DNA of 7,681 nt. Origin: Candidatus Heimdallarchaeota archaeon. GTDB lineage: Archaea > Asgardarchaeota > Heimdallarchaeia > Heimdallarchaeales > Heimdallarchaeaceae. A program made the position numbers and the translations under genes. The stretch lies in contig DAOVER010000089.1 in the NCBI GenBank assembly GCA_030668875.1, forward strand, positions 1 to 7,681. Reading direction: 5' to 3'. The notes below the pieces were generated by a model. That model saw only the letters and a list, made by a program, of their open reading frames with translations, was not told the DNA's origin and searched no databases. This document shows, one piece after another, positions 1 to 7,681 of the stretch; position 1 is the stretch's first letter, and every line of letters begins with the position of its first letter.

Positions 1-1551
1 TATCGTGATAACGAATCTTATCTCATTGTAACCATTATATAGATTGATATCACCAGTAATTTCTGCTTGACCTGTCTCCCTAATTGATTTTGTAAAAGCT
101 ATATTGCTTCCCGATTTAACAGTAATCGTGATACTGTCAAAATTTATATCAGAACTGATGAACATTGAGAAATTACAACTGTAATAAACAGCTGAATCTT
201 CTAGATAAACTACATCATAGAAACTTTTGCTAATAGCTCCTATCATGGGAGTGCTGATTTCTGTTTCAGAGACTAGTTGTTTCTCATATGTTTCTTGATC
301 GAAATTAATTATCTCAGATATGCTAATAGATGAAATATTGTAAAGAAATATAGTTCCTGAACCAGAGTTAATTGCACTTAAATGTAGAAATAAGTCTGAA
401 TTATAACTTTCTGTATAAGTTATGATTTCTATAGTTTGTTGAGAACTACTTTGCTTACTGGCGGTTATGATTCCAGATTCCAAAGAAATACTGTTTTGAG
501 TAATCTCAAAGTCTATACCAGAATAGATTGTTGTTCCTTCAAAACTGAATACTAACTGTAAGTTTAGAATATTTGCAGTTTGAATTGAAAAGGGTTTGAA
601 ACTGGATATGTCAATGGTAGAATCAATTGCATCTTCCCAGCTAATTTCTTGAAAAACCTCATTTGAAGGAGTTATCTTTGGTACTAATTTCCCAGTAGAT
701 TTTAGATTAGAAATTTGAATTATATCAGTTGAAATCTCTATGTGAAAAATGAGTGTTATAATATTGATGCCTTCTTCTAATGACAGAGTAAAAACAAAAT
801 CGTTTTCTTGATCAGAATCAATTGTTCTTGTATCTTGAACCTGCGAGTTAATGGATACAGATAATTCTTCTACAAAAGAGTTGAAGTCATTTGTTGTAAA
901 ATTTATTGATAATTCTAAGGAATAGGTGACATTATCGGTACAATTAACAGCTGATAAAATCGCATACTCTGATGTACCCAGCATCTCACCCTCGAACATG
1001 AAATATTCTGGAAGAAATGTTATGTCTTGGAAAGTGGTATTTAGTGTTGTAAGAGGTAGATTTTCTATATTACTAGTAGAGAATATTTTGATAACTCCAC
1101 TTTTTCCATATGAAGCTAGTCCTGAAATTATCACAGTAATGTTTACGTCACTTGTTAAATCGGCTTCAGAATAGAAACCTTGGGTAATTGAATGATTAAC
1201 ATTGTCTTGGTAAATTCTTTCAATAGTAAAATCAACTTCAACGTCTAAGATTTGAAAAGTAATAGCTATTCCAGCACTAGTGGATTTGTCTCCTTCAACA
1301 ACAAAACTAAGATTGAGAACATTCAGAGCTGAAAGTGTAAGATTAGTTAAAATAAAATGTTGAACGCTTTCGACAGAGCTATCATTGAACTCGTATGATA
1401 TTTCTTGATTTATTGTCTGTGAAAGCGTTCGAGTGTGTGATGAGTCAGTTGGTGAGTTCGACAAACTTAACCCACTACCCGCTAGCATAACCATTAGAGT
1501 GATGCAACTTACTATTAGTAAGTTATTGTAGTGTCTAGTGAATGTGACCAT
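1..1551 (-). CDS. Large secreted/surface protein, 3'-truncated by the window edge (>=517 aa), predicted all-beta Ig-like domains
   Basis: Hand translation from ATG at 1551 to base 1 has no stop codon. It starts MVTFTRHYNNLLIVSCITLMVMLAGSGLSLSNS (signal peptide or anchor). The rest is S/T/I/N/E-rich with alternating beta-strand patterns, including LSLEEGINIITLIFHI and INLYNGYNEIRFVITI (Ig-like 'L..G.N.I.I' motif). 11 N-x-S/T sequons counted. Confidence 0.93.
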   Translation of the reverse strand, partial: MVTFTRHYNNLLIVSCITLMVMLAGSGLSLSNSPTDSSHTRTLSQTINQEISYEFNDSSVESVQHFILTNLTLSALNVLNLSFVVEGDKSTSAGIAITFQILDVEVDFTIERIYQDNVNHSITQGFYSEADLTSDVNITVIISGLASYGKSGVIKIFSTSNIENLPLTTLNTTFQDITFLPEYFMFEGEMLGTSEYAILSAVNCTDNVTYSLELSINFTTNDFNSFVEELSVSINSQVQDTRTIDSDQENDFVFTLSLEEGINIITLIFHIEISTDIIQISNLKSTGKLVPKITPSNEVFQEISWEDAIDSTIDISSFKPFSIQTANILNLQLVFSFEGTTIYSGIDFEITQNSISLESGIITASKQSSSQQTIEIITYTESYNSDLFLHLSAINSGSGTIFLYNISSISISEIINFDQETYEKQLVSETEISTPMIGAISKSFYDVVYLEDSAVYYSCNFSMFISSDINFDSITITVKSGSNIAFTKSIRETGQAEITGDINLYNGYNEIRFVITI

Positions 1552-1571
1552 GTCTGTCAACTATCTTATAC

Positions 1572-2459: not shown

Positions 2460-3641
2460 ATGAATTCTGAAGAAGAGAAGAATGATTTTGTTTCTTCTTC
2501 TAAAATAGAAGAAATGGGGAAGGAGAAAGTGGTTGTTGACTCAAAAAAAGAGAAAGTCTTAACTCCATCTGAAATCAAAGAAAAGAAAACGTTTGGTGTA
2601 ACTTACTTCATCTTGGAAACGCTAGTAGTCATTGCAACAGTTTTTGTTTTTATAGTACCTCTAATTGATATCAATACTTCTAGTTATTATTTCTCCGATA
2701 TTGCTGTCATTTTCATGGTTTTTCTGGCTGCATTTGGTCTTCTTAATACTTACTTCTATCTGTTTAAACTAGATTCAAAATATAGGACTACAGCTTTCGT
2801 ACTTAGATTTAGCTTAGTAATCATCTCACTACTCATGTTTGTGATATTAGCTTATTATTCCTATATGTCAGATATACATGTTACATCTATGTTAATTTCT
2901 ATCTATGCCCTTTCTTCACAAATGATACTGAAAATCTACCTCCTTACTTCAAAGAAAACCATCAAGGAGAGATTATTCAGAAGAGCTGTTGCTGGTTCTC
3001 CTTCCGAGTTAGAATGGAGAAAATTCGACGTATTGTCAGGATATCTAGCAATAATTCTTGGTATTTTTGTTCTACAGATTTTCTGGCTCATTTATCATGG
3101 AATAATCCGAAAACCTGTTATTGAACGAACTAAGAAGAAACTAATTGTTGAAAGCCTAGTATTTGGAAAAGAGGTTAACCTTACTTCAGTTGCTTTGGAA
3201 ATAGGTGTTTCTTTAGAAGAAGTTATTTTCAAGCTTAAACAACTTTCGCTTAAAGGACATTTGAGGATAGAATTCACTCGATATGGGGCAGTTCTTAATG
3301 AAATTAGATCACCCAAATGGTATTCTAATGCTATGCATGAAAAGTATGAAAATTTTCTACATGGGCAGAAGGAATCTGAACTAGAAATTAAAGTAAACAA
3401 GTTTATCGAGTTGGCTGCAAGGGATAAAATTACAGGCAGTGATTTCAGAATGATAATGGGAATAAATCCTGATTATCCTATTAAAAGCCTTGAATTGCTC
3501 TTGCCCAATAAAGTTATAGATGTCAGAAAGCCGATATTTTCCAAAATGTCCTGGGTCTATATCAGTCTAGAACACGCTATGCTCAAAAGAGAGAAAATAG
3601 TCAGCATTTTCATTGATAACAGTGAAGAATTATTTGGTTAA
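2460..3641 (+). CDS. Polytopic membrane protein (~5 TM) with C-terminal winged-helix / PCI-like domain
   Basis: 393-aa ORF with five hydrophobic segments in aa ~45-216. EVNLTSVALEIGVSLEEVIFKLKQLSLKGHLRIEF (aa 238-272) fits the winged-helix pattern of PCI-type domains (I.L..IA..L..S.EEV...L..L...G.I.G.I). TATA-like TTTAAATA starts 29 nt before the ATG. Confidence 0.9.
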   Translation: MNSEEEKNDFVSSSKIEEMGKEKVVVDSKKEKVLTPSEIKEKKTFGVTYFILETLVVIATVFVFIVPLIDINTSSYYFSDIAVIFMVFLAAFGLLNTYFYLFKLDSKYRTTAFVLRFSLVIISLLMFVILAYYSYMSDIHVTSMLISIYALSSQMILKIYLLTSKKTIKERLFRRAVAGSPSELEWRKFDVLSGYLAIILGIFVLQIFWLIYHGIIRKPVIERTKKKLIVESLVFGKEVNLTSVALEIGVSLEEVIFKLKQLSLKGHLRIEFTRYGAVLNEIRSPKWYSNAMHEKYENFLHGQKESELEIKVNKFIELAARDKITGSDFRMIMGINPDYPIKSLELLLPNKVIDVRKPIFSKMSWVYISLEHAMLKREKIVSIFIDNSEELFG

Positions 3642-3727: not shown

Positions 3728-6163
3728 ATGAAAAGAAATAATTCTGTTCTTTTAGTATTCATTTTGCTTGGAACACTAAGTTTTTTCCCTACTCATGATT
3801 TTACTAAAGGACTTACCTATGATGATCAAAATATCACTTCTTCTTTAAATAATGGTAATGATGCTTTTAATCAAATTTATGGGAATCCAGGGTATACTGC
3901 TTTGGCAATTAGCGAAGAAGATAATCTAATATTCACAAACTCTTACAAAGGTTTAGCACTCTTTCAATTGGATGACCTATTAAACTCCTCTCACTATGGT
4001 ATAGAGATAGGCTTATCTGAAGCGACAATTTTTGACTTAGAAATTGACGAAGACCTCAAACTCTTGTACATCTCTACTATTGGTAATGTGGATATCCTAA
4101 ACTATTCTGTTTTCCCTCTACAAGCAACATCTATCGCCACAGGTAATTTTGGTGTTTTCGACTTAACAAAAAATGTTGTAGTTGATCACAATACAAACAT
4201 AGCCTGGATTAGTAGCTATGATGGCTTAAGTGCTTACGACCCAATAAAAGGCTCTTTTCTTGATACATCTGGTTATCCTGTCCCTTCATCTGGAATTTTA
4301 ACTTTGGATCTATATGATAACTATCTGTTCATTGGTGCAGAAGATGGTTTTTACTGGATAGATATGCTAACAAACACCTCACAGAAGTATACTACAACTG
4401 AGGGTTTACCTTACAATAAAGTCAGTTTAGTGAAATACTATCCAACAGAAAATAGGACATTTATCACGACAAAAGATCCAACACCTAATACTGGATTAGC
4501 TGGAGGATTAACTGTTATTTTCGAAAATGAAACCGTAGAATCATATAACTTGACAGAAGTAGGTTATAACCCTCTTCCTGTTATTGATATAGCATTTGAT
4601 TCTAGTAGAGAACTTGGATATATCGCTTCATTCATTAGTGCTAATACCGAATGTGGTTTATATATTTTCAATGCTTCTTCGCTAGAAGGAATAGCTCGTT
4701 CTGCTCAAGGGACTGGTGGCTCTTCTAGTTTACCTTATATAACTGCAGATTACTCGGTTGAGGGACTTTTAGCAAGTGTTGAGATAAACGAGTTGACAAA
4801 TGAAGCAATACTTGGTACAATACAAAGGTTACAAATATTGAATTTTGTTGATCCCCTCACTCCTGCAAGTAACACTGTCATAAGTGGCCCAATTCTAGGT
4901 ATGTATCATAATATGGCTTCTGATGTTCATTACGATCCTATCGATGAAACTGTTTATGTTTCTACCTTACTGGGTCTAAACAGATTCAGTATATATTCCG
5001 CAAATGAAGATAACCTTGAATATCTGTTGAACGTTCCTGGTGCTGGTGGAAATACTGCCGGTGAATTATTAGTTAATTCTCGATTAATGTTCCATCATCG
5101 GTACCTATACAATATCTCTGATGATGGTGTAACTGATATGAGCACAATTCTCCCATTAGATGAGTACAATCATATCCGTGACATATCTTCTTCCCCTAAT
5201 GAATCTGTGATTTACTATTCAGTTGGTAGAGATGAAAATGGTAACGGTTCTCTAATTATCTATAATTGGCAAACTGGTAACTATTCAGTTCATGATTTGG
5301 GTTACGATAGAACTGATTTGGAATTAAACGAAGTCTTGCACGACCCAACAAGAGACGTTCTCTACATTGCAACTAACAAAAGCCTGGTAATGTTCAACCT
5401 TACAACTCGTGAAGTTATTAAAACTTTTGGAGAGGTTGAAGAGTGGGATATTCGTTCATTAACATGGATAGATGGTAAAATATGGGTAGGTCTAGAACAA
5501 TCTCCCCATGTAAAAATCTTTGATCCTATTTCAGAAACTTTTGAGGATTTCACTCAAGCTGCTTTATGGATACCTACGATCAATGATATTGTACATATTT
5601 CAGAAACTAATGAAATTATGTTCACGTCTAATAGAGGTGTTTATCTTTATAACATGACTAATGAGCAGATTAAGTTTGAAGGTGAATCAGAAGGTTTGTC
5701 TAGCCTCTTCGTTGCCCGCGCAGACTATAGCCCAATAACAGGAAAAATGTACATAGGAACTTATTTGGGTTTGAATGTTTATGATCTCAACTTCGATGAC
5801 AAATTACCTGAGATAGAAATTGATCAGTTTGTTTATGTCTCTGGAAATTTTGCTTTTGATGTAGGAGCAAAAGATTATTCAGGTATCAAAAATATAACTG
5901 TGGAACTGTGGAACTCAACTTGGAGAGCAATTTGGGTGGCGATGAGTGAAGTAGTCCTTTCGATAAATATTGATACTACTCAATATGACGATGGAGATTA
6001 TACATTAACAGCTTATGTTACAGACTGGAATGATCTATTGAATACATCATCCCAAATTATTCAGATTGAGAATGTAGTCATAGGAGAATACTCTGCTCTA
6101 ACTGCCTTGTTCATATTCCCAGTAATTGCTTGCATTGTTTATTTAAACAAAAGGAAGAGATAA
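3728..6163 (+). CDS. Cell-surface double beta-propeller protein (Reg_prop / two-component-regulator-propeller-like blades) with Ig-like domain and C-terminal TM anchor
   Basis: 811 aa with N-terminal signal peptide MKRNNSVLLVFILLGTLSFF. About 14 blade repeats of the type D....LY(I/V)(S/A)T..GL..(F/Y)(N/D). Reg_prop-like motifs: KYTTTEGLPYNKV (nt 4385-4423), LGMYHNMASDV, FEGESEGLSSLFV (nt 5675-5713). Bacterial Ig-like motif DTTQYDDGDYTLTAYVTD (nt 5972-6025). Ends in a TM helix plus KRKR. About 18 sequons in the mature chain. Confidence 0.93.
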   Translation: MKRNNSVLLVFILLGTLSFFPTHDFTKGLTYDDQNITSSLNNGNDAFNQIYGNPGYTALAISEEDNLIFTNSYKGLALFQLDDLLNSSHYGIEIGLSEATIFDLEIDEDLKLLYISTIGNVDILNYSVFPLQATSIATGNFGVFDLTKNVVVDHNTNIAWISSYDGLSAYDPIKGSFLDTSGYPVPSSGILTLDLYDNYLFIGAEDGFYWIDMLTNTSQKYTTTEGLPYNKVSLVKYYPTENRTFITTKDPTPNTGLAGGLTVIFENETVESYNLTEVGYNPLPVIDIAFDSSRELGYIASFISANTECGLYIFNASSLEGIARSAQGTGGSSSLPYITADYSVEGLLASVEINELTNEAILGTIQRLQILNFVDPLTPASNTVISGPILGMYHNMASDVHYDPIDETVYVSTLLGLNRFSIYSANEDNLEYLLNVPGAGGNTAGELLVNSRLMFHHRYLYNISDDGVTDMSTILPLDEYNHIRDISSSPNESVIYYSVGRDENGNGSLIIYNWQTGNYSVHDLGYDRTDLELNEVLHDPTRDVLYIATNKSLVMFNLTTREVIKTFGEVEEWDIRSLTWIDGKIWVGLEQSPHVKIFDPISETFEDFTQAALWIPTINDIVHISETNEIMFTSNRGVYLYNMTNEQIKFEGESEGLSSLFVARADYSPITGKMYIGTYLGLNVYDLNFDDKLPEIEIDQFVYVSGNFAFDVGAKDYSGIKNITVELWNSTWRAIWVAMSEVVLSINIDTTQYDDGDYTLTAYVTDWNDLLNTSSQIIQIENVVIGEYSALTALFIFPVIACIVYLNKRKR

Positions 6164-6179
6164 AACACTCTTCTACTAC

Positions 6180-6190
6180 TTTCTTTTTTT
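6180..6190 (+). terminator. Oligo-T terminator between convergent genes
   Basis: TTTCTTTTTTT about 17 nt after the stop at 6163, overlapping the stop codon of the convergent gene. Confidence 0.55.
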
Positions 6191-6806
6191 AAGCTACGTT
6201 TCTCTGTTTATCCTCGTCATCTCTCTTCACTTTTCCAGAAAGAAGCTCTTTGATGACGGAATCTTGCCGTCGAATTTTTCTTAAGATAAAGAAAGTTGCA
6301 ACACCAACACCTATAGCTAAAGCTCCCCCTACTCCTACAATCGTATAAATCAGCTGACGTTTAACATTAATATCTATTCTTCCTACTTCGTCGTAGTACT
6401 CAGCTAAACCAAGGTAATCAGTTATGAAAGCAGAAACATCATTTGAAGCATGGATTTCAATACGACATTCAGTTACATAGACACCCTCTAGATCAAAATT
6501 AAATGAAACAACGAAATAATTGTCTTCTGCAATAGTACCAGTACCGTCTATGGTATCAATTCCTTCTTCAGAGAAACTTATACTATAGATAACATAAGAA
6601 TCATATCTATCATAATCATCTGTTACTACTCCTGTATTGTCAATAACAAGGAAATAGTACCCTTCCTCTATGATGCAATTAGATAAACCATAGCGCCTAT
6701 CTTTAATTAACGAACCTGGAACGTAGCTAAAAGAAATAGCTTGACCAATATGAGGTGCTAATAGAAGCATTAGAAATAGACAGAACACAAGTGATTTTTT
6801 CTTCAT
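6189..6806 (-). CDS. Type I single-pass membrane protein with a small beta-rich ectodomain
   Basis: The track starts it at TTG 6821, but ATG 6806 follows GAGGT and gives a clean signal peptide MKKKSLVFCLFLMLLLAPHIGQA. Acidic/aromatic ectodomain, Gly-rich TM LIYTIVGVGGALAIGVGVATFFIL, and basic cytoplasmic tail starting RKIRR. Confidence 0.88.
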   Translation of the reverse strand: MKKKSLVFCLFLMLLLAPHIGQAISFSYVPGSLIKDRRYGLSNCIIEEGYYFLVIDNTGVVTDDYDRYDSYVIYSISFSEEGIDTIDGTGTIAEDNYFVVSFNFDLEGVYVTECRIEIHASNDVSAFITDYLGLAEYYDEVGRIDINVKRQLIYTIVGVGGALAIGVGVATFFILRKIRRQDSVIKELLSGKVKRDDEDKQRNVA

Positions 6807-6900
6807 TTCAACAAACCTCAAATTATAACAAATTTTTTGGTTATTATGACTCTGAATTAAATCTTTATCAATATTGTGTAATGAAAAGAATATTTGTCGT

Positions 6901-6930
6901 CTATCTTTTTTACTTTTAACTATCTTTTTT
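6901..6930 (+). repeat. 11-nt direct repeat CTATCTTTTTT x2
   Basis: Exact copies at 6901-6911 and 6920-6930, just upstream of the GC-rich structured island. Confidence 0.5.
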
Positions 6931-6945
6931 CTAATTAGTTTAGAT

Positions 6946-7057
6946 GGAAAAATAGGGGGAATAAACCCCCCGGGTGTGAATGAAGGTTTTGGGTTGGGGG
7001 AATTATCTTCCCCCCTGTGGAAGAGAGGTCTCTAAAAAGAGGCTTCTCTCATTTTCC
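6946..7057. ncRNA. Candidate structured non-coding RNA / cis-regulatory element of unknown family
   Basis: 50/96 G+C at 6955-7050 versus 20/100 at 6841-6940. Hairpins: GGGGG-AATAAA-CCCCC (6955-6970), GGGGGAA-TTATC-TTCCCCC (6996-7014) and AGAGAGGTCTCT-AAAA-AGAGGCTTCTCT (7022-7049; 12 bp with 2 G.U pairs on the + strand). These are closed by GGAAAA (6946-6951) / TTTTCC (7052-7057). Confidence 0.5.
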
Positions 7058-7072
7058 TATAGGAGAATTGAG

Positions 7073-7080
7073 TATTTAAA
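7073..7080 (-). promoter_or_regulatory. TATA-like box pointing into the GC-rich element
   Basis: TTTAAATA on the - strand (7080-7073), the same octamer as the 2431 box, 28 nt before the - strand ATG at 7052. No clear BRE. Confidence 0.35.
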
Positions 7081-7129
7081 GTAGGCAAGAGAGTCAACTG
7101 TGTAAGTGAAATAAATCTAGGATAGAGAC

Positions 7130-7141
7130 AATTTATAAATT
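7130..7141. promoter_or_regulatory. Palindromic TATA box upstream of 7185
   Basis: Perfect palindrome AATTTATAAATT containing TTTATAAA (7132-7139), flanked by an 8-bp inverted repeat TAAGTGAA (7103-7110) / TTCACTTA (7145-7152). Confidence 0.55.
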
Positions 7142-7184
7142 ATATTCACTTATTCTATCATGAAAATAAACCCTTGTTGATTGA

Positions 7185-7681
7185 ATGAAATATCTTAGAA
7201 TTGTATGTGTCATCCTTGTCATGTCCTCTTCCTTTCACCCTTTGTTTCATTTTGCTACAGCTAATTCTAGTAGTTTTTGGGGCGAGTATCAAGATGAATA
7301 TGAGTATGATTATTTAAAACAATCAACTATTTTTGATATATTTGATCCCGAGAAAGAAAGTAGATTGGAGACTAAGGAAGATACTTATTCTTTCTATAAC
7401 TTAACAACTAATGGATCTGATTTATTTTTTAGAACTTCAGAATGCAGGAGTCCTCTAGAGTTCATTAAATGTTACGATGAAGAGTGTTATAATTATACAA
7501 TTTACAAACAATTCGATTATGATCCCCAAACTGAAACAATTAAGTTAGGTTTTAGATATAATGAAACAACTGGATGCTACGATGTTTTAGATGGGGAGGA
7601 AAAGATTTTTGCAGATATTTACGATTATACTATGCCTTTCGATATGATTAAACTATTCTGGTCAAATTACTTCTGGCATGG
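7185..7681 (+). CDS. Secreted hypothetical protein, 3'-truncated by the window edge (>=165 aa)
   Basis: Hand translation is open to the edge: MKYLRIVCVILVMSSSFHPLFHFATA|NSSSFWGEYQDEYEYDYLKQ... It has a signal peptide with an A-x-A cleavage site, is Y/D/E/F-rich, and has 5 sequons (NSS, NLT, NGS, NYT, NET) and 4 Cys in the mature part seen. Confidence 0.88.
   Translation, partial: MKYLRIVCVILVMSSSFHPLFHFATANSSSFWGEYQDEYEYDYLKQSTIFDIFDPEKESRLETKEDTYSFYNLTTNGSDLFFRTSECRSPLEFIKCYDEECYNYTIYKQFDYDPQTETIKLGFRYNETTGCYDVLDGEEKIFADIYDYTMPFDMIKLFWSNYFWH

Follow-up and report, generated by a model that had tools for sequence, protein, structure and literature searches.

The GC-rich island analysed here is best read as the gene of a non-coding RNA of about 100 bases, which would be transcribed from the minus strand by its own promoter, end at its own terminator and serve as a stand-alone regulator. 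From the comparison of related genomes, we give this reading a probability of roughly 0.6. The RNA family appears to be undescribed and confined to two genera of Heimdall-group Asgard archaea. Across the copies found, the elements of the unit were conserved, the promoter lay at a fixed spacing, a T-run was shared, the ability to form hairpins was retained and no coding potential was detected. Support for the promoter and the terminator is good, and that for the structure is moderate.

The window, that is, the whole stretch of 7,681 bp that was analysed, is an entire contig (C55) of a metagenome-assembled genome (MAG) of 3.23 Mb with a mean G+C content of 33.8%. In 100-nt windows, the G+C content was 49% at positions 6950-7049, compared with 22-29% on either side, which bears out the island that had been picked out from the sequence alone. 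DNA of the locus was present in 16 public runs, which are sediment, seep, vent or marine metagenomes; no RNA sequencing run was among those listed. Besides the gene of a 205-aa protein described below, the contig carries five ORFs, at 1-1560 (minus strand), 1719-2258, 2460-3641, 3728-6163 and 7185-7679 (plus strand). None of these five reached a Pfam threshold, with DUF4271 and a WD-repeat family only hinted at below it. The ORF starting at 7185, which is divergent from the RNA, encodes a signal-peptide-like N-terminal segment and is conserved in genome G016.

A BLAST search recovered a copy with 93% identity from G016, together with partial matches from G001 and G015. The order was also searched for the 205-aa protein, and inspection of the DNA upstream of each match gave 12 loci with the conserved block. 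A first covariance model built from these 12 synteny-found loci added four copies, one from another species of genus g1 and three from genus g10. In all, 16 copies were found in 15 Candidatus Heimdallarchaeota MAGs, AB_125 among them, with covariance-model E-values from 2e-7 to 2e-23. The RNA was present in 13 of the 24 genomes of genus g1 (the host included) and in both genomes of g10, one of which (G041) carries two of the three copies there. The sequence-only reading had named a search for further copies as a check: homologues occur in related genomes, and none further was found in the host genome, where the RNA is single-copy by both BLAST and the covariance model, as it is in almost all other genomes.

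Beyond these copies, a search of 82 genomes of the class with a second covariance model added no credible match; its two weak class-level matches both lay within coding sequence and were rejected. Neither of the two closed genomes from the sister genus contained the RNA, and a pattern scan of IMG/VR found none on viral contigs. A scan of JGI metagenomes with the linked protein returned two loci, both duplicates of known variants. Because 11 of the 24 g1 genomes (again counting the host) are without it, the RNA is dispensable. Between the host genome (G000) and G016, the RNA and its promoter are 86-90% identical, compared with 72-75% for the flanks.

All copies share one layout when read on the minus strand of the window, which is also the strand of the 205-aa gene. 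The archaeal TATA box (TTTAAATA) lies at 7073-7080 on this strand. Across the homologues, the box reads TTTAWATA (TTTTTATA in one paralogue). Its first base lies exactly 27 nt ahead of the model match in 16/16 copies, without any indel across the two genera, and its bases are invariant in alignment A3. In archaea, transcription starts ~26-27 nt after the TATA centre. When this textbook spacing is applied to the invariant TATA position, transcription is predicted to start at 7050, at a G preceded by T, and this position coincides with the first base of the first hairpin (hairpin A) in most copies.

An upstream promoter box was found at 7097-7116 on the minus strand, in which CACTTACACAGT comes after a T-rich run; relatives have the consensus T-run plus ACTTTCA(G/A)T. 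The box stands ~50-59 nt before the predicted start and ~20 nt before the TATA box, and this distance to the TATA box is fixed in 15 of the 16 copies and in both genera. It is predicted to be a regulator-binding site. Within the host genome, the box and TATA at this spacing occur at the RNA locus only. When the genomes were searched for a regulon with the same pair of elements, only the RNA loci stood out; the other matches were at the level of the reversed-pattern control and preceded unrelated sequence. One match, at G040:C1:97780-97813 (L077), reads ACTTTCAGT, 17 nt, TTTAAATA and is located 19 nt before an ATG, which opens an ORF resembling the TnpB type by eye only. It is probably a chance match, as its spacing differs from that of the RNA promoter.

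At the other end of the unit, the RNA is predicted to terminate at an oligo-T signal, the U-run UAUUUUU (6948-6954, minus strand), which would form its 3′ end. In 15/16 copies, the tail or the second module described below is followed by at least four consecutive T residues. The RNA of the window is thus predicted to extend from 7050 to ~6948, a length of ~103 nt, and the predicted units range from 58 to 116 nt over the copies. A second run of five U residues lies in the loop of hairpin A (7034-7038); it is absent in G016 and could itself terminate transcription. When the copies were compared with the known form of intergenic archaeal sRNA genes, the TATA spacing was found in all 16 and a T-run closing a noncoding unit in 15. 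The sequence-only reading had left the strand undecided and had offered a minus-strand transcript of ~105 nt, with a TTTAAATA box at 7080-7073 and a hairpin followed by UAUUUUU, as one of two options. Both elements are present and conserved, and it is this comparative evidence that favours the minus-strand option.

The gene downstream of the RNA (6189-6806, minus strand) encodes a 205-aa membrane protein. In 12 genomes, an orthologue follows the RNA on the same strand at a distance of 81-173 nt, and within g1 the RNA adjoins this gene in 12 of 13 genomes. The protein had no match to a Pfam family. In its structure model, a signal peptide is followed by a beta-sandwich ectodomain (residues ~30-130), which was predicted with high confidence, and then by a single transmembrane helix and a basic tail; weak fold matches of the ectodomain were carbohydrate-binding modules (CBM16 and a Ruminococcus CBM) and the periplasmic sensor domain of RetS. 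Most orthologues have a conserved K-F-K-N-I-G-type C-terminus, and three have a cytoplasmic zinc ribbon (loci L018-L028). On the far side of the RNA, the gene of an MFS transporter ends just upstream, on the same strand, at 7/16 loci in both genera, which suggests an old order of transporter, RNA and surface protein. The island had been described as lying in a spacer between divergent genes. This holds only for the host genome and its closest relative; in other genomes the far-side neighbour differs, while the RNA and the 205-aa gene still point the same way.

This arrangement raises the question of whether the RNA is instead the 5′ leader of the 205-aa mRNA, controlling it by attenuation or read-through at the U-run, or by translation control in cis. 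We regard this as unlikely, although it has real points in its favour. The RNA lies upstream of the gene, on its strand and at the close range given above, and in 12 g1 genomes the RNA and close orthologues of the gene occur together or are absent together. Runs of four or five T residues are weak archaeal terminators, so read-through is plausible. However, four of the 16 copies retain the promoter and precede other genes or none. The RNA and its promoter are kept where the downstream gene differs or lies on the opposite strand (G040, G041a, G041b, G003), with different neighbours beside them in G040, G041a and G003. In each genome, TATA-like boxes, although common in AT-rich DNA, were found between the RNA and the gene, so the 205-aa gene probably has a promoter of its own. 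The spacer between the two is also far less conserved than the RNA (72% versus 90%). Control in cis by base pairing found no support either: the RNA tail showed no co-varying complementarity to the start region of the 205-aa gene, with average energies of -10.4 kcal/mol for own pairs and -10.2 kcal/mol for swapped pairs. Finally, the two plain hairpins have no junction or pocket of the kind typical of ligand-binding leaders. Since the promoter is kept beside unrelated genes and TATA-like boxes intervene, an independent RNA gene is preferred over a leader.

The RNA might still be co-regulated with its neighbour. At L020, L021, L022, L023 and L025, TTTCA(G/T)T abuts an ATTTAA(A/G) TATA-like box just past the RNA terminator, and degenerate forms of this motif are seen in G008 and G015. 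TTTCAGT is common to the upstream box of the RNA and to this post-terminator motif, and therefore one regulator might act on both promoters.

With an independent gene as the preferred reading, the TATA box, aided by the upstream box at ~7097-7116, would direct initiation at ~7050, and the transcript would fold successively into hairpin A, a CCAC linker, hairpin B, a C-rich stretch left unpaired and, for this species, another G/C hairpin before ending at the U-run at ~6948. Hairpin A (7021-7050, minus strand) pairs a purine-rich 5′ arm with a pyrimidine-rich 3′ arm (CUCUCUU), which is the most conserved stretch of the RNA. It is followed by the unpaired linker CCACA (7016-7020; CCAC in most copies) and by hairpin B (6996-7015), in which a G-run and a C-run form 7 pairs. 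Next come an unpaired C-rich tail or spacer (6972-6995) with a CCCAAACC-type motif, here CCCAAAACC, and hairpin C (6955-6971), the second G/C hairpin, with 6 pairs. All of these are read on the minus strand. The three hairpins that had been described from the sequence alone are present at their positions, and the 24-nt linker at 6972-6995 is real as well, being a C-rich single-stranded spacer on the minus strand. The CCCAAACC motif is conserved in both genera, and the tail is single-stranded in nearly every fold of the gene strand.

Hairpin C belongs to a second module, which consists of a pyrimidine stretch, CCAC, a G/C hairpin, a C-rich motif and a T-run and is a tandem partial duplicate of the first. 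Six copies carry it, namely those of the window, G016, G014, G003, G006 and G004, and the same covariance model matches it with a weak score. In the window the module spans 6948-6995, and it was also noted at L027:867-907, L028, L024 and L045. A hint of alternative folds comes from G014, where the duplicated pyrimidine stretch offers the 5′ arm of hairpin A a second pairing partner.

A hairpin A of 8-13 bp can form in 16/16 copies, with at least eight different apical sequences. The basal arms are kept, whereas the apical part is lineage-specific but self-complementary each time, as in CUCU/AGAG, UUG/CAA, GGUUAG/CUAACC, UAG/CUA, AGAGU-CUUU/AAAG-ACUCU, GGG/CCC and AUAGGA/UCCUAU. Hairpin B was likewise found in 16/16 copies, with 5-9 pairs, and its upper pairs change on both sides, from A-U to U-A in G015 and to AUG/CAU in g10. 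A count by alignment columns was far less distinct. In the model alignment, 5 of 13 pairs changed on both sides and 77.4% of the cells were paired, compared with 72.9% after shuffling, and slid controls scored nearly as well. The column-wise covariation signal is blurred because the purine/pyrimidine helix slips register between lineages. Hairpin A was not recovered by RNAalifold on a MAFFT alignment, which is not structure-aware.

Inverted repeats could also act as DNA. The island might be a DNA-level element that needs no functional RNA, such as palindromes bound by a regulator, a promoter or insulator between the MFS and 205-aa genes, or a terminator of the upstream gene. The MFS gene that ends just upstream on the same strand at seven of the 16 loci would fit a terminator or insulator, and the conserved upstream box does resemble a protein-binding site. 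Nevertheless, the repeat arms change in sequence and length and yet stay complementary, which fits RNA helices better than an unchanging site recognised by a protein, and several copies have G-U pairs on the gene strand. The TATA box stands at an invariant distance before the first hairpin, as expected of a start site, and a hairpin is unnecessary for termination in archaea. A purely DNA-level role thus seems distinctly improbable.

The folding energies of the window copy are less decisive about the strand. Compared with dinucleotide shuffles, the fold had z scores of -2.71 on the plus strand and -2.66 on the minus strand, which are modest and do not decide between the two. This copy folds more stably on the plus strand (-44.8 versus -35.4 kcal/mol). 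Its hairpin A has 12 pairs on the plus strand, including two G-U pairs, compared with 11 pairs and two A.C mismatches on the minus strand, so the two wobble positions favour the plus strand. Such values are in line with a plus-strand RNA of ~112 nt (6946-7057), in which three hairpins would be closed by a terminal stem to give a multiway junction with a G/U-rich linker. Several observations make this structure very unlikely. The closing stem of 6 bp (GGAAAA at 6946-6951 with UUUUCC at 7052-7057), which the sequence-only reading had taken as the frame of the RNA, is kept in no homologue beyond the near-identical G016. One of its arms lies upstream of the predicted start at 7050 and the other inside the T-run terminator, and in the folds of more distant homologues the 5′ flank and the 3′ tail are largely unpaired. 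As the closing stem is not kept beyond G016 and straddles the predicted ends, the multiway junction is not supported, and the RNA is better described as hairpins in a linear row, with a C-rich tail that stays unpaired.

A promoter for a plus-strand transcript was not conserved either. The candidate TATA box on that strand (TTTTAACT, 6914-6921) is already altered in the closest relative, and the plus strand has neither a conserved TATA box at a fixed distance nor a conserved T-run. Over the 16 copies, the mean z score of the fold was -2.38 on the gene strand compared with -1.44 on the opposite strand. The stability of the plus strand stems from promiscuous G-U pairing of its G-rich stretch. The argument from G-U pairs for the plus strand is correct for this copy, but it does not extend to the others, several of which show G-U pairs on the minus strand. 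The minus-strand call is accordingly based on the promoter and the terminator, and the wobble pairs are not its basis.

To place the RNA among known families, the window was compared with Rfam release 15, and no family reached its gathering threshold. Permissive Rfam scans of 6800-7200 and seven homologous loci gave only chance-level matches (E above 1), none of them recurring at the RNA. ARAGORN found no tRNA or tmRNA in the window. Archaeal C/D guide RNAs have a C box (RUGAUGA) near the 5′ end and a D box (CUGA) near the 3′ end; the C box and CUGA were absent from all 16 RNAs. In archaeal H/ACA guides, the hairpin contains a large internal pocket, and an ACA (ANA) box comes after it. Here, ACA was missing in 7/16 copies and stood at no conserved place in the others, and no pocket of this type was found, the hairpin bulges being only 1-2 nt. 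The earlier view of a structured RNA without the hallmarks of tRNA, guide RNAs or a family in Rfam is thus supported by the Rfam, ARAGORN and motif searches, and the Rfam comparison it had proposed matched no known family at the locus.

A housekeeping RNA was also considered and rejected, in view of the 11 g1 genomes and the closed genomes of the sister genus that are without the RNA; archaeal SRP RNA was found elsewhere in the host assembly. The reading as a gene of a small protein was rejected as well, since short ORFs differ between copies in start, frame or stop, or are missing. At L021, L022, L025 and L019 (AB_125-type and related loci), the 5′ arm of hairpin A contains GGAGG with an AUG 4-7 nt later, opening frames of 8 or 27 codons that are not conserved in other copies. 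These frames look like by-products of the purine-rich arm and not like genes of small proteins.

As a stand-alone regulator, the RNA may use its exposed C-rich and pyrimidine-rich strands to pair in trans with G-rich, Shine-Dalgarno-like stretches of other transcripts. Alternatively, it could act by binding a protein. Two known sRNAs are instructive here. In the archaeon Methanosarcina mazei, the intergenic sRNA41 masks ribosome-binding sites (PMC5867862). Like such archaeal intergenic sRNAs, the RNA described here is a short unit with a basal TATA promoter and a narrow taxonomic range, and by analogy its exposed single strand could pair with purine-rich ribosome-binding sites. Unlike sRNA41, it belongs to a different phylum, has no homology to it in sequence or structure, and carries an additional conserved upstream box. 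In the literature searched, we found no described sRNA or other regulatory RNA of Asgard archaea.

In Firmicutes, the duplicated C-rich motifs of the sRNAs RsaE/RoxS pair with G-rich Shine-Dalgarno regions (PMC6158497). The RNA of the window resembles them in having ~100 nt, unpaired C-rich motifs between stem-loops and an end formed by a hairpin and a U-run, and its C-rich motif is likewise duplicated in some copies, namely those with two modules. However, RsaE/RoxS are bacterial and not homologous to the RNA here, which had no Rfam match, and its motif is CCCAAACC instead of UCCC or CCCC. The likeness to RsaE/RoxS and to sRNA41 would therefore concern the working principle only.

In composition, the locus recalls the Hgc RNAs, GC-rich ncRNA genes that Klein, Misulovin and Eddy reportedly found in 2002 by composition screens of AT-rich hyperthermophiles. 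Both are GC islands in an AT-rich archaeal genome that encode, or here would encode, a small hairpin-rich RNA. The present host, however, is a marine-sediment Asgard archaeon and not a hyperthermophile, and the Hgc families in Rfam were not matched. In the host genome, in contrast to those screens, only about a fifth of the GC islands correspond to known RNAs.

The order of the promoter elements also invites comparison with eukaryotic type 3 RNA polymerase III promoters (U6, 7SK), which have a proximal sequence element at about -55, a TATA box at about -30 and termination at a T-run. At the RNA locus, a box at about -59 to -50, a TATA box at -30 to -23, a purine start and a T4-T5 end are found, and as in the U6 and 7SK genes the product would be a short structured RNA. 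By analogy, one might propose a dedicated small-RNA promoter laid out like type 3 Pol III, driving the first Asgard riboregulator with duplicated C-rich motifs. If this were true, the closest archaeal relatives of eukaryotes would have a specific factor that binds a proximal element at about -55. We consider it a long shot, however. The RNA has no features of U6 or 7SK, each genome has one box-bearing locus, and the remaining layout is ordinary for archaea, in which a TATA box at such a distance and termination at a T-run are usual for the RNA polymerase.

Asgard archaea are mostly uncultured and known from metagenomes. In this setting, the RNA would offer a concrete object for metatranscriptomes of sediments and for enrichments, with predicted ends and an exposed motif. 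Its fixed genomic partner is a membrane protein whose outer domain is sugar-binding-like, and an MFS transporter gene is often found upstream. For in vitro work on regulated transcription in this lineage, the invariant spacing of box, TATA and start would provide a clean template. If the RNA is a plain lineage-specific sRNA, it would be a routine addition to RNA family databases.

Possible targets were sought in the host genome and around the locus, and no conserved one emerged. No pairing with the MFS gene was found. Among 13,229 start regions of the host genome, an IS5-like element gave the best duplex (-30.1 kcal/mol), through its right end. Over 20 positions, the spacer at 6972-6995 matches the complement of this end at 17; the element is of the IS4/IS5 type and has a DDE_Tnp_1 transposase. 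The assembly contains three such sites (G000:C62:8284-8424, G000:C83:38825-38965 and G000:C2:13236-13375), and each spans the transposase stop codon and a terminal Shine-Dalgarno-like AGGAGG plus ATG. Genomes G016, G021, G009 and G010 have this IS end as well; the complementarity to the RNA is confined to G000 and G016. The IS was detected in only two other RNA-bearing genomes. This complementarity is an unexplained observation, which may reflect chance, a scar of the IS or a real target. Together with a TnpB fragment beside the G003 copy, this complementarity to a sequence present three times in the assembly might suggest that the island is itself mobile-element debris or an element end, for example a miniature repeat or an IS remnant. 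That is scarcely credible, given that the RNA is single-copy here and in almost all other genomes, has no flanking transposase or terminal repeats, keeps an orthologous position in 12 genomes, and resembles the IS over only 20 nt, in a set where just two other RNA-bearing genomes have that IS.

Other GC-rich stretches of the host genome were recorded as well. Genome-wide, G000 has 115 ORF-free stretches with at least 50% G+C over 80 nt, of which 23 overlap tRNAs and 2 overlap SRP RNA. About 90 carry no annotation here, among them contig ends, IS ends and, where C9 begins, a probable rRNA fragment; some of these stretches may be further RNA genes.
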